Source: Acidobacteriota bacterium (GTDB lineage Bacteria > Acidobacteriota > Thermoanaerobaculia > Multivoradales > JBCCEF01). Taken from it: a stretch of DNA of 64,000 nt. A model generated the notes under the pieces. The model saw only the letters and a program-made list of their open reading frames with translations, made no database searches and had not been told where the DNA came from. The stretch spans positions 320,830 through 384,829 of the forward strand of contig JBCCEF010000003.1 of the NCBI GenBank assembly GCA_039030395.1, given 5' to 3'. The stretch's first letter is position 1. The number at the start of each line of letters is the position of its first letter. This document shows positions 26,482-29,860 of this stretch, in pieces. Both the position numbers and the translations under genes were made by a program.

Positions 26482-27479
26482 GAGGCTTTCGGGACCAGGC
26501 CGGCGACCACCCGGGCGAGTCGTGCCGGATCATGACGGATCAAATCGCCTTCCGCCAGCAGGTCTTCTTCGATCACATCGACTCCGACGCTCTCGAAGGC
26601 CGCGCGGTCGACGGTCACCGGGGTGGATCCGCTGTCGGCATAGTTGCGCACCAGTTGCTCCGGCGGGGGAGCGGCGTTCGCCAGCACCGTGTCGACCAGC
26701 GATTCGCCGGCCAGGTTCTGGATCGCTTGCAGGTGGCCGATGCCGTCGAAGCCGTCCGTCTCGCCTGGCTGGGTCATCAAGTTCAACAGCAGAATCACCC
26801 GGGCCGAACTGCCGCGGATGGCGGAGCGAACACCGGGGATCAGTAGGTTCGGCAGGATCGAGGTGTAGAGGGAGCCGGGCCCCAGGAGGATCAGGTCGGC
26901 GTTGCGCAGGGCCTCGGCGGCGGGCGGGAAGGCCGGCGGCGCCGGCGGGTCGAGCACCACCGCCTCCATCGGCTCGCCGGAGGTGCCGATAGCGGATTCG
27001 CCTTCATACACCCGGCCGGAGGTGCCCCGGGCGCGCAGGCGAACGTCCTCTTGGGTGGCCGGTAGAATCCGCCCGCGCACCGAAAGGACCGACTCGGCGG
27101 TCAGGATCGCCTGGTAGAAGTCACCGGTGATGCCGGTCAGGGCGGTGAGGAACAGATTGCCAAAGGAATGGCCGGTCAGACCGGCGCCGTTCGGGAAGCG
27201 GTACTGGAACAAACGGGCGAGCAGGTCTTCGTCATCCGCCAGGGCGGCGATGCAGTTGCGGATGTCGCCCGGCGGCAGCACGCCGAATTGGCGCCGCAGG
27301 CGGCCGGACGAGCCGCCGTCGTCGGTCACCGTCACCACCGCCGTCAGCCGCGGCGCGGCCGGATCCGTCGGGTCAACGCGGGCTTTCAGGCCACGCAGCA
27401 GCACGGCGAGGCCGGAGCCGCCGCCGACGGCGACTAGCGAAGGCCCCCGCCCCTCCCCGGCGGTGCTGCCCTCAGCCAA
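26478..27479 (-). CDS. YvcK/GlmR (UPF0052, CofD-like) family protein
   Basis: A TTG start is proposed, overlapping the upstream stop by 4 nt (TTGGCTGA). It reads GPSLVAVGGGSGLAVLLRGLK ... VTDDGGSSGRLR ... GNLFLTALTGITGDF, typical of YvcK/GlmR. The track ORF's first ~90 aa are an out-of-frame readthrough of the upstream gene. Confidence 0.65.
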   Translation of the reverse strand: MAEGSTAGEGRGPSLVAVGGGSGLAVLLRGLKARVDPTDPAAPRLTAVVTVTDDGGSSGRLRRQFGVLPPGDIRNCIAALADDEDLLARLFQYRFPNGAGLTGHSFGNLFLTALTGITGDFYQAILTAESVLSVRGRILPATQEDVRLRARGTSGRVYEGESAIGTSGEPMEAVVLDPPAPPAFPPAAEALRNADLILLGPGSLYTSILPNLLIPGVRSAIRGSSARVILLLNLMTQPGETDGFDGIGHLQAIQNLAGESLVDTVLANAAPPPEQLVRNYADSGSTPVTVDRAAFESVGVDVIEEDLLAEGDLIRHDPARLARVVAGLVPKAS

Positions 27480-28107
27480 GCTCGAAAAGCTGGTCGTGTT
27501 CGCCGGAGGTCCGCAGTGCGTCGAAGTCCGAATCGTGGAACGCGTAGACGCGGTTCTTCGGATTCTCGTCGATCGCCTTGCCGAGCAACTCGGCGGCCTG
27601 GTCGTCTGCTCCCTGGGCCGCCTGGATGGCCGCGGCCAGGTACAGGAAGCGCTCGTCTTTCTTGAGGCGGTCGCCCTTCTCGCACAGCGCCTGGGCGGCT
27701 TTGAAGTCCCCCAGATTGTGGTGCAACACGGCCGCCAGGAAGGGGTCGACATCCTTGTCGTTTTTCGCTTGATCGATCCGCCGCTCGGCGGAAACGAGGA
27801 GCTGGCGGGCCCGCTCGGCGAGTTCCGGTAGATCGGTTGTCTCGACGGCCTTTTCTAGCAGCGCCGTGGCCTTTTTCCAATCGCTGGCGTAGAGGCGGTC
27901 CATCGCCTCCTCGTAGATGCCGATTGCCGGATCCGTCGCAACCTCCGGCTCGGGCTTGCCGTCCTTGGTGACCAGACCGAGCTCGATCAGTTTGCTGGAA
28001 ATCTCCCCGTGATCGACCTCGAAACGCTTCGCGAGTTCGTCGAGGGTCTTGGTTTTGGCGTAGCGGTTGAGGTAGCTGACTTCGGTGGTTTGCCAGGTTC
28101 TCGCCAT
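27472..28107 (-). CDS. TPR-like protein with N-terminal HTH-like segment
   Basis: Start set at MARTWQTTEVSYLNRYAKTKTLDELAKRF. TPR-like helices follow (AERARQLLVSAERRIDQ; LGDFKAAQALCEKG; YLAAAIQAAQG). The gene lies immediately downstream of mglA. Confidence 0.5.
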   Translation of the reverse strand: MARTWQTTEVSYLNRYAKTKTLDELAKRFEVDHGEISSKLIELGLVTKDGKPEPEVATDPAIGIYEEAMDRLYASDWKKATALLEKAVETTDLPELAERARQLLVSAERRIDQAKNDKDVDPFLAAVLHHNLGDFKAAQALCEKGDRLKKDERFLYLAAAIQAAQGADDQAAELLGKAIDENPKNRVYAFHDSDFDALRTSGEHDQLFELG

Positions 28108-28222
28108 GATCTTCCTTCCGATGTAGAGCGACAAGGGCGTGCTGTCGGAGCGCCCTACGCTGAAGTGACTGGAATGTACGAACCGCGAACGGCGGCGTCC
28201 TGCCTCGGCGACGGGCGTCGGT

Positions 28223-28807
28223 CTACCGTTTGCGCAGCTCGATCAGAATCTGTTTCGCGACCGACTTGAGGGTGTCGAACACCCCTTCGCCGGTCGTCGC
28301 GACCGCCTCGAAGGTGGGTTCGCGCTTGAAGTTGAGTATGCGGTACATCTTTTCCACCGGCTCCGCCGACGGCAGGTCCCGCTTGTTGAATTGCAGCGCG
28401 TACGGGATCTCCCGCAGGTCGAAGCTGAATTCCTGCAAATTGGCTTCCAGGTTGCGGATCGATTCGATATTCGCTTCCATCCGCTCGGCTTGACTGTCCG
28501 CCACGAACACCACCCCGTCCACGCCCTTGAGGATCAGCTTGCGGCTGGCGTCGTAGTAGACCTGCCCGGGGACGGTATAGAGGTGAAAACGCGTCTTGAA
28601 GCCGCGAATGGTGCCGAGGTCGAGCGGCAAAAAGTCGAAGAAGAGCGTGCGATCCGCCTCCGTGGCGAGGGAGATCATCTTGCCCTTCGCGTCCGGGGCG
28701 GTCTTGTTGTAGATGTACTGAAGGTTGGTGGTCTTGCCGCCAAGGCCCGGACCGTAGTAGACGATCTTGCAGTTGATTTCTTTGCTGGCGTAGTTGATGA
28801 ACGTCAT
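28223..28807 (-). CDS. mglA: Ras-like small GTPase MglA (mutual gliding-motility protein A)
   Basis: 194 aa. [37 protein letters not shown]...[55 protein letters not shown]...QFNKRDL is near-identical in motif content to M. xanthus MglA (P-loop GPGLxGKTT, switch regions, NKRD). Confidence 0.9.
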
Positions 28808-28889
28808 GCTAGGTGCCTCAAGCTCACAAAATCGCCACCGGTTGCTGTTTCTAGCTCAGTCCCGCGCCATTCGCAACTGCGCGTAACCG

Positions 28890-29045
28890 AGCCCGACAGG
28901 GGCTCGGCGGCAGCGTTAGCTGCCGAGGACGGGGTGAGCCCGAAAAAGCTGTGCTTTTTCGGCTGAGGGGGCGCCCAGCCCCCTAGGAAAACAGACTAGC
29001 AGGCGTGCTGAAATCATCGGCGAAGCACTTTCAGCCGCCTGCTAG
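28890..29045. repeat. Intergenic structured repeat element, copy D (between mglB and mglA; its 3' end supplies the mglB stop codon)
   Basis: gacggggtgagcccgaaaaagctgtgctttttcggctgagggggcgcccagccccctagg ... actagcaggcgtgctgaaatcatcggcgaagcactttcagccgcctgctag. The terminal CTAG overlaps the TAG stop of mglB (29042-29044). Confidence 0.7.
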
Positions 29046-29536
29046 TCGCTAAATAAGGCGTCGATGTCTTCGTCGGTGATCTCGGCGAAGGGACTGCTTT
29101 GGGAGTGGCCGGCTACCGTTTCCTGGCCCTTCCGCTGCATGGAATCGAAAATGGACTCCATCTCCGCGCTGGCGCGCTTGACCCGCAGCCGCACCAGGCC
29201 GAGGGATGAGCGTTCATCGAAGATGACCACCAAGATCGCTCGCTTCGCGACGATCGAAATGTGGATGTGGTCCTGTTCACCTTCATGGAAGAGGACCGAA
29301 AACTCGCGCTCGCCAATCAGCTTCGCCAAGCCGTCCGTCGCGGCGACGTTGCCGGCCGTCAGGGATGCGAGGGAGGTGGTGTCGAACTGCTCGATCTCGC
29401 CCTCCGAGGCGATCTGCTGGCCGTTCTTGTCGATCAAGAAGATCGCCCGGGCATGCGCATCGTGACGCAGCCGGCGCAGTGCTTCTACGAGCGCCTGCAA
29501 CTCCTCCTCGAAGAGCACGAAATCTGTCGAAACCAT
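29042..29536 (-). CDS. mglB: MglB, roadblock/LC7-fold GTPase-activating protein of MglA
   Basis: 164 aa. FLIDKNGQQIASEG...DTTSLASLTAGNVAATDGLAKLIGEREF...GLVRLRVKRASAE...SPFAEITDEDIDALFSD parallels the M. xanthus MglB blocks (VFLVDKNGQLIS, DTTSLASLTAGNVAA, GLVRLRIKKAS, SPFAEIsDDDID.LF). Confidence 0.85.
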   Translation of the reverse strand: MVSTDFVLFEEELQALVEALRRLRHDAHARAIFLIDKNGQQIASEGEIEQFDTTSLASLTAGNVAATDGLAKLIGEREFSVLFHEGEQDHIHISIVAKRAILVVIFDERSSLGLVRLRVKRASAEMESIFDSMQRKGQETVAGHSQSSPFAEITDEDIDALFSD

Positions 29537-29619
29537 GGTAGCGAACCCTTTCCCTCTGGCGCGAATCCGGCTTGAAAGCCGGCAAAGTGGTGACTCTACT
29601 GTATTTTGGCGATGCAGGG

Positions 29620-29860
29620 AACCGCGGTCACGTAGCTGGCAGGTCGCTGAAAAAGGCCTTCGGCCTATGATCTCAGCCTCCCTGCCCGCTTCTTTCAGGG
29701 GGGCTCAGCGCCCGCCCGCGGTCCGCCCCTCGCCCGAAAGGTACTGATTTTTCGGCCCCAACCCCATCTCCGGCGGCAGAGCCGCCGTCTCGCCTTTCAG
29801 GCTCGGAGCAGGGCGCTGAAGTGTGTTGAGAATTCTCTCAGCACCCTGCTAGCGAAAGTA
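29620..29860. repeat. Intergenic structured repeat element, copy E (upstream of mglB)
   Basis: ggggggctcagcgcccgcccgcggtccgcccctcgcccgaaaggtactgatttttcggccccaacccc ... ccggcggcagagccgccgtctcgcctttcaggctcgg ... ctcagcaccctgctagcg. The module order is as in copies A and B. Confidence 0.6.

Follow-up and report, generated by a model that had tools for sequence, protein, structure and literature searches.

A putative composite operon joining mglB-mglA to a TPR-like leader gene and the glmR-glmU-glmS genes in Acidobacteriota

Why do the genes of a bacterial polarity switch stand directly ahead of those that supply UDP-N-acetylglucosamine (UDP-GlcNAc)? The question is raised by a 64,000-nucleotide stretch of contig JBCCEF010000003.1 from the metagenome-assembled genome of an Acidobacteriota bacterium of the Thermoanaerobaculia (this whole 64-kb stretch is called the window below). 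Here the open reading frames (ORFs) of mglB (29042-29536), mglA (28223-28807), a tetratricopeptide repeat (TPR)-like gene (27472-28107), yvcK/glmR (26478-27479), glmU (25021-26481) and glmS (23194-25014) all lie on the minus strand. MglA and MglB are a model system for front-rear polarity in bacteria, and peptidoglycan, lipid A and many exopolysaccharides are all made from UDP-GlcNAc. An earlier reading of this DNA (the original prediction) had proposed the TPR gene as a candidate MglA effector. From the comparison with related and remote loci described below, the TPR protein is more likely a partner of the glm genes than a dedicated MglA effector.

Identity and arrangement of the genes

The mgl genes themselves are ordinary. 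The 194-residue MglA, a Ras-like GTPase, aligns without gaps over residues 1-193 with M. xanthus MglA (PDB 6hjh, E=2e-94, about 80% identity as read off the alignment) and also matches T. thermophilus MglA (E=1.7e-75). The P-loop GPGLGGKT, the DRTLFFDF segment and VPGQ are kept; in M. xanthus MglA the DRTLFFDF segment belongs to switch 1 and bears the intrinsic arginine. The 164-residue MglB, a predicted Roadblock/LC7 GTPase-activating protein (GAP), matches Robl_LC7 (PF03259, 1.6e-15, 57 bits against a cutoff of 23) and M. xanthus MglB (6h5b, E=8e-51) over residues 3-164, C-terminal tail included. It scores 80.9 bits against a cutoff of 200 with the Thermus-type NCBIfam equivalog NF052242 and is thus of the Myxococcus rather than the Thermus type. 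As is characteristic of group 1 MglA, a cognate mglB is found next door, 234 nt upstream on the same strand, and the pairing is kept in nearly all related loci. Judged by their sequences, these are genuine genes for a group-1 MglA GTPase and its Roadblock GAP, and the identities and mglB-then-mglA order given in the original prediction are correct.

This order is the same in the mgl modules of M. xanthus and T. thermophilus, as are the Roadblock fold and C-terminal tail of MglB. Unlike those modules, the pair here continues co-directionally into TPR-glmR-glmU-glmS. The survey of Wuichet and Sogaard-Andersen (2015, PMC4316618) describes group 1 MglA gene neighbourhoods that 'vary widely' and names no TPR-glm partner. 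The parts of the window that were scanned showed no rom, frz or pil genes.

YvcK/GlmR, a CofD-related protein of a UDP-GlcNAc-binding family, scores 345.1 bits with TIGR01826 (cutoff 196) and matches PF01933 at 4e-102, whereas the F420 CofD equivalog gives 26 bits against 257. GlmU is bifunctional, with Pfam matches to the nucleotidyltransferase N-domain (NTP_transf_3, 6e-21) and to the C-terminal left-handed beta-helix of hexapeptides (Hexapep, 6e-24). GlmS, the glucosamine-6-phosphate (GlcN6P) synthase, has a glutamine amidotransferase domain (GATase_6, 1.4e-20) and two SIS domains (5.4e-58, in two stretches).

Tight packing begins at the TPR gene. Its TGA stop (27474-27472) lies inside TTGGCTGA, and the TTG at 27479 is the sole plausible start of yvcK; reading the sequence at 27472-27479 confirmed the 8-nt overlap that had been predicted, and the gene calls of the closest relative (L001) likewise give 8 nt. 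The yvcK and glmU genes overlap by 4 nt, glmU and glmS are 6 nt apart, and glmS is followed after 10 nt by a sulfatase-family gene (21018-23183, minus strand; PF00884, 4.5e-41). The close packing ends with this gene, and reaches it only here and in L001; tblastn of the related loci found a co-directional sulfatase homologue 3' of glmS in L001 only. Upstream of the block, mglA stands 115 nt off the TPR gene (spacer 28108-28222). The mglB-mglA spacer measures 234 nt (28808-29041) and not 235 as first stated, and 312 nt separate mglB from the ftrD-like gene before it.

The TPR-like gene and its neighbours across lineages

A family-profile scan with one genome per GTDB species found a relative in 166 species, and the best 80 of these, almost all labelled Thermoanaerobaculia or Acidobacteriota, were fetched. 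Five homologue contexts (43-63% identity) have mglB-mglA-TPR followed by cofD and/or glmU, with glmS wherever the contig reaches. Searching with the window proteins by tblastn, we found mglB-mglA-TPR-(cofD)-glmU-glmS to be colinear in nearly all of 88 loci (L001-L088); L087, from a metagenome-assembled Thermoanaerobaculum sp., has this cluster too. The original prediction named a lack of the TPR gene next to mglA in relatives as a ground for refuting it; in almost all of these 88 loci the two genes do stand together.

Between the mglA stop and the TPR start, the 83 related loci measured have a median of 16 nt, and L001 has 27 nt. The 115-nt spacer of the window is long for the clade; it holds no repeat copy, no excess structure (z=+0.86) and no promoter pattern that would account for the additional ~100 nt. 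In about 13 related loci yvcK is missing, which brings the TPR gene right up against glmU. The exceptions to the tandem order are L076 and L086, in which a divergent GlpD-like gene takes the place of mglBA upstream of the TPR gene; in L076, TPR-cofD-glmU-glmS are still together with mglBA gone. Both loci are nested within the tandem clade in a rough neighbour-joining tree and therefore look like secondary losses of mglBA.

Remote contexts were collected by direct look-ups and by a metagenome scan seeded with 11 remote members only (80 loci), with tblastn for the neighbours and dereplication at 80% identity; the GC content of these loci spans 0.47-0.73 in the scan and 0.40-0.73 with the look-ups. 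Of the 30 dereplicated remote clusters with enough flank, 28 have glmU, or cofD followed by glmU, immediately after the TPR gene (26 by automated count, plus L156 and L157, whose matches overlap by a few bases). Linkage to mglA holds in the Thermoanaerobaculia clade but not across the family: of the 31 remote clusters, 8 have mglA/B close by, in divergent orientation, and the other 23 lack it within the upstream flank examined (at least 2.5 kb). The genes found upstream where mglBA is absent are unrelated (folK, dNK, panB, panC, and MBL-fold, Omp85, SDR and cation-efflux genes). Remote members are labelled Acidobacteriota, Thermoanaerobaculia (a second, mglBA-free lineage, L176), Aminicenantes and, once, Dormibacteraeota. 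L089 and L176, which represent the nearest lineage sampled beyond the tandem clade and are labelled Thermoanaerobaculia, have no adjacent mglBA. Because the TPR gene is upstream of glmU in 28/30 remote lineages and mglBA is nearby in 8/31, synteny identifies the TPR gene as the ancestral leader gene of a TPR-(glmR)-glmU-glmS operon, in which it is almost always the first and promoter-proximal gene.

The mgl genes do recur beside the family elsewhere. In a second clade (L161, L164, L167-L175) mglB-mglA divergently abuts TPR-cofD-glmU; its MglA is 70-75% identical to that of the window, and its labelled members (P0233, P0258) are Acidobacteriota. In L093 and L094, mglA alone is divergent from TPR-glmU. 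In an Acidobacteriota metagenome-assembled genome (GCA_031271905.1; L175:5271-11494), mglB-mglA is divergent from the TPR gene and there is no glmU; the TPR gene is followed by a 173-residue ORF with no Pfam match and then by a 1042-residue class A penicillin-binding protein (PBP; Transgly), another envelope-synthesis neighbour of the TPR gene. A single inversion of the mglBA block would turn the tandem into the divergent order. An old adjacency with many losses and repeated capture of mglBA are both compatible with the rough tree.

Promoters were sought with a sigma-70-type pattern, TTGAC-N16-19-TAnnnT, and counted against shuffled sequences. Upstream of mglB the pattern occurs in 30 of 65 sequences (Thermoanaerobaculia relatives and the window), where 0.25 are expected in shuffles, while mglA and the mglA-TPR spacer contain it in 4 of 79 (1.2 expected). 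Of 75 remote loci, 40 have it ahead of the TPR gene (1.3 expected), many of these 40 being of one soil lineage. Moreover, an extended -10 (TGnTAnnnT) was found upstream of mglB in 13 sequences, ending 20-41 nt before the ATG. In the window itself the full pattern is not matched upstream of mglB and a simple sigma-70 scan found no promoter; the promoter assignment comes from the comparison with relatives. A -10-like hexamer, TAGAGT (29598-29593, minus strand), is common to the window, L001 and L010 (CTGTAGAGT) and may mark a putative mglB promoter. In the soil lineage (L095-L133) the TPR-glmU-glmS promoter reads TTGACAnnnAAAGATAGCATTTGCTAGCAT and is kept among loci whose proteins are as little as 60% identical; it lies some 150-185 nt ahead of the TPR-domain match, and a perfect 5+5 palindrome, TAGCA-TT-TGCTA, lies over its -10 and is a candidate operator.

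In Thermoanaerobaculia, mglBA would accordingly sit between the conserved promoter and the glm operon. Because of this position, usually about 16 nt before the TPR gene, the mgl and glm genes are most likely carried on one transcript.

The TPR-like protein and its possible role

The TPR-like protein has 211 residues and is 100% identical to NCBI AAF481_05780. Its ATG start is backed by the family alignment, which opens M-A-[KR]-x-W. An AlphaFold2 (AF2) model built on a 25-sequence alignment has a mean pLDDT (AF2's per-residue confidence) of 89, with a three-helix bundle at 7-43, a low-confidence linker and an all-alpha solenoid at 60-208, the latter at about 90 or above. All Pfam TPR models fall below cutoff (best ANAPC3, 22.6 against 27.2, and TPR_2, 20.9 against 27), yet the NCBIfam capping domain TPR_END_plus matches at 36.6 bits (cutoff 32) and Foldseek of the full model against the PDB returns nearly all TPR proteins (probability 0.98-1.0, E ~1e-2, TM 0.25-0.35); the domain is therefore called TPR-like here. 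A sequence-profile search of the PDB gave generic TPR proteins only and no functional lead; a match to OGT (6e-4) was read as generic TPR similarity and given no weight.

The N-domain modelled alone (AF2, pLDDT 88) has helices at 7-16, 22-29 and 33-43. Its top Foldseek matches are DNA-binding helix-turn-helix (HTH) proteins (PHOX2B homeodomain, OxyR, ComA, DosR, NarL, PurR), all at E>=0.7, such non-significant values being expected for a query of just 53 residues. Pfam matches of HTH type (EutK_C, HTH_DeoR, Sigma70_r4, FeoC) are every one below cutoff. The HTH-like N-terminus of the original prediction is in keeping with the predicted three-helix bundle, with HTH matches that are top-ranked and not significant.

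A profile search at full sensitivity against 1.84 billion representatives, clustered at 50% identity, gave 1702, 729 and 74 clusters at E<=1e-3, 1e-10 and 1e-30, respectively, so that the family extends far beyond the mglA-linked Thermoanaerobaculia clade. Remote members have the same architecture, with a ~150-residue TPR-like domain and the C-terminal motif NR[IV]xAxxDxDFxxLR. Their N-terminus varies: it is an HTH-like domain, a Lys/Arg/Pro/Ala-rich basic tail, or an HTH that leads into a basic, PAKP-rich linker of ~150 residues. Either kind would suit a protein that binds nucleic acid or another polyanion. The family is uncharacterised, mainly acidobacterial and not specific to the mgl module. 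Two other identities were dismissed. Long members (335-370 residues) are not MglA-TPR fusions, their extra length being a Pro/Ala/Lys-rich basic linker, and the TPR gene is not RomY, which has 188 residues, a conserved N-terminal region and no TPR (PMC9481161). In the soil lineage, two GlmU-containing ORFs of about 640-660 residues (L100:5509-7443 and L115:5527-7503) carry ~180 extra N-terminal residues before the GlmU match begins; GlmU may be extended there, or a small gene that has escaped recognition may follow the TPR gene.

Taken as a whole, we consider it somewhat probable that the locus is a composite operon whose TPR-like protein regulates UDP-GlcNAc synthesis or serves it as an adaptor. 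The mglB-mglA genes would supply a GTPase and its Roadblock GAP in front of the TPR-(glmR)-glmU-glmS operon, and in Thermoanaerobaculia one transcript from a sigma-70-type promoter would carry both the polarity-switch and the UDP-GlcNAc-supply genes. The HTH or basic N-terminus of the TPR-like protein may bind nucleic acid or another polyanion, while the TPR-like domain may sense or bind a protein or ligand of the GlmR/GlmU/GlmS pathway. The protein could in this way provide the feedback control of glmS that in other bacteria comes from the glmS ribozyme or from GlmY/GlmZ-RapZ. No glmS ribozyme or other Rfam element was found in 23000-30400, where a permissive threshold gave one chance-level match.

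Two known systems invite comparison. On this reading, the glmS ribozyme and GlmY/GlmZ-RapZ would share a function with the TPR-like protein, feedback control of the supply of GlcN6P and UDP-GlcNAc, and the controller here would be a protein. The second is the GlmR (YvcK)-GlmS pair of B. subtilis, of which the YvcK/GlmR homologue is present here too. Two reports (PMC7525490, PMC6171935) describe B. subtilis GlmR as binding UDP-GlcNAc and interacting with GlmS, and propose that it stimulates GlmS. In Firmicutes, glmR belongs to a yvcJ-glmR-yvcL operon (PMC10986989), whereas here it forms one run with glmU and glmS behind the TPR-like gene.

Several points weigh against this composite-operon reading. 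Co-transcription is deduced from spacing and promoter patterns, and the mglA-TPR gap is 115 nt in this very genome. The proposed function of the TPR-like protein is drawn from its neighbourhood and architecture, with no motif, ligand site or solved relative to point to it, and the HTH assignment lacks statistical significance (Foldseek E>=0.7, Pfam below cutoff). A mirror-tree comparison did not separate the possible partners, as the TPR-like protein correlates with MglA, MglB, CofD, GlmU and GlmS alike (0.84-0.89) and the partial correlations go both ways (0.25-0.58). The TPR-GlmU fusion that would speak for this reading, a predicted 403-residue protein (P0192) joining a TPR-like domain (53-205, 4e-19) to a GlmU nucleotidyltransferase domain (213-368, 8e-22) across a 7-residue gap, may be a frameshift or assembly artefact, since its C-terminal 35 residues look out of frame. 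Finally, the adjacency to mglBA recurs in the distant divergent clade, and L175 keeps it without glmU, which fits a real link to MglA.

This last point leads to the foremost alternative, in which the TPR-like protein is a putative MglA-GTP effector or adaptor. MglA would bind its TPR-like domain, as with SgmX and Bd2492, and direct or gate GlmR/GlmU/GlmS or envelope synthesis at the pole, so that the gene linkage would mirror a physical MglA-TPR-Glm pathway. The tandem order with its 16-nt median gap, kept across the loci fetched from the 166-species clade, speaks for such an effector, and so do the divergent second clade, the lone mglA of L093 and L094, and L175 with its nearby class A PBP. 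There is also precedent in the cytoplasmic TPR-type proteins SgmX of M. xanthus and Bd2492 of Bdellovibrio, functionally tied to MglA (PMC7519303, PMC7668184, PMC3983030). These, however, are much larger proteins, with no HTH or basic tail described, and are not encoded beside mglA; Bd2492 (353 residues) and its M. xanthus counterpart MXAN_5766 (1031 residues) are found with tamAB-like genes (PMC3983030). The protein here has 211 residues and an HTH-like or basic N-terminus, and is linked to glmU family-wide. Moreover, the link to glmU is kept where the examined upstream flank has no mglA/B, the nearest Thermoanaerobaculia lineage sampled beyond the tandem clade is without adjacent mglBA, none of the longer family members inspected is an MglA-TPR fusion, and the tight gene block of the window begins at the TPR gene, with mglA at a distance. 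The effector claim of the original prediction therefore stands as to the conserved mglA adjacency, and is weakened by a family wider than the mgl module whose near-universal neighbour is glmU-glmS; on balance we find an MglA effector rather unlikely.

A further alternative is synteny of purely historical origin, with no functional coupling. The TPR-like gene would then be inherited vertically as a neighbour of glmU, and sometimes of mglBA, and would serve some unrelated housekeeping function. In favour of this, all six genes vary together with phylogeny (distance-matrix correlations 0.75-0.91), nothing in the sequence of the TPR-like protein connects it with either partner, and glmU-glmS adjacency is common in bacteria. 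Against it, TPR and glmU stay together over a GC range of 0.40-0.73 and down to ~30% protein identity, where the genes ahead of them are entirely different. Stop and start codons often overlap or lie very close together, and the TPR gene comes first after a conserved promoter. Such persistence usually reflects selection for co-expression, and neutral synteny appears improbable. A role of the TPR-like protein in UDP-GlcNAc supply is the reading we retain.

Repeat copies, flanking genes and significance

Two of the spacers of the locus contain multi-hairpin repeats. Copy D (28887-29045, minus strand, 159 nt; nhmmer E=2.4e-36) fills the mglB-mglA spacer as originally described, and the stop codon of mglB falls within its first CTAG. 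Copy E (29636-29807, plus strand, 172 nt; E=3e-33, with alignments) is also real, and lies in the ftrD-mglB spacer; it had been assigned to the mglB leader, but because it is upstream of the shared TAGAGT it is probably outside the mglB transcript. The repeat family (~160-200 nt, four conserved GC-rich hairpins) has 6 full and 2 partial copies in the window, all intergenic, in both orientations and beside unrelated genes (nhmmer E 1e-30 to 1e-43), with compensatory changes in 12 of 48 predicted pairs. Copy D folds at -107.8 kcal/mol, and the D and E spacers are more stable than shuffles (z=-3.1 and -3.75, respectively). No T-tract or T-run terminator signature was found in the repeat elements, and no copy of the family in any of the 88 related loci. 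In 77 relatives the mglB-mglA spacer never exceeds 175 nt (median 84), and for the ftrD-mglB spacer the median is 102 nt (35 relatives). The corresponding lengths here are 234 and 312 nt, so the excess is accounted for by copies D and E.

We read the two copies as genome-specific passengers of the REP/BIME kind (repetitive extragenic palindromes and their mosaics), which would have landed in pre-existing spacers and would have at most incidental effects on mRNA stability. Like REP/BIME repeats, they belong to a strictly intergenic family of short GC-rich imperfect palindromes in mosaics, dispersed in many copies and both orientations, with compensated hairpins; what differs is that the sequence family is specific to this genome. 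That the copies are instead regulatory hairpins, attenuators or stabilisers tuning the mglB:mglA ratio and mglB expression, is very improbable: the strong folds, the conservation with compensatory changes and the necessary presence of copy D in any mglB-mglA co-transcript are outweighed by the spread of copies at unrelated genes, their absence from related loci, the missing T-runs and the probable position of copy E upstream of the promoter, a distribution that is that of a dispersed selfish or structural repeat and not of a locus-specific regulator, which leaves the transcriptional attenuation first suggested unsupported.

Upstream of mglB lie, all on the minus strand, a gene for an FtrD-like membrane Fe-S protein (29849-30331; PF10080, 1.9e-20), a DUF5989 gene (30339-30503) and a carbamoyltransferase gene (30548-32536), the last two named by family assignment. 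By tblastn, roughly half of the related loci have the FtrD-like gene ahead of mglB, and it is probably a separate transcription unit, because the conserved promoter sits between it and mglB. The three genes recur 5' of mglB in many Thermoanaerobaculia loci, not always contiguously, and in L003 the carbamoyltransferase pair is relocated downstream of glmS. On the other side, a UvrD-family helicase gene stands directly 3' of glmS in L004 and L176 and 3' of the lone TPR gene in L086; in the window, a gene of this family (15732-18158) lies ~5 kb past glmS, after the sulfatase, LtrA and unknown genes. A few kb upstream of the cluster are a GGDEF diguanylate cyclase gene (35420-37201) and a TonB-dependent receptor gene (37226-39796), the latter followed by repeat copy G. 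Farther off, four consecutive long ORFs (467, 472, 251 and 553 residues; 51532-57804, minus strand) have no Pfam match and adjoin the lowest-GC stretch of the window (50001-52000, GC 0.575). Finally, a 300-nt direct repeat (59158-59457 and 60271-60570; 77% identity, spacing 1113 nt) could represent duplicated gene segments.

To our knowledge, functional work on MglA and MglB comes nearly all from Myxococcus, Bdellovibrio and Thermus. Our literature searches found no description of a link between a polarity GTPase and envelope precursors, nothing on MglA together with Thermoanaerobaculia, no TPR gene heading glmU-glmS in Acidobacteria and nothing on glmS regulation in Acidobacteriota. What is new, and in our view moderately interesting, is the putative composite operon and the undescribed leader-gene family with its recurrent link to mglBA. 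A whole acidobacterial class has mglBA ahead of essential UDP-GlcNAc genes with no detectable promoter between them, and a second acidobacterial clade holds the same genes as divergent neighbours, which points to a link between a polarity GTPase and envelope precursors. In addition, an uncharacterised family of at least 729 clusters at 50% identity is defined, almost always encoded by the first gene of an acidobacterial glmU-glmS operon. Tentatively, and with considerable doubt, this protein may be an unrecognised, mainly acidobacterial master regulator of UDP-GlcNAc supply that replaces the ribozyme or GlmY/GlmZ and that, in at least two clades, forms a node wiring MglA/MglB to envelope-precursor synthesis, by transcription or by direct binding. 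If so, MglA would gain a role outside motility.

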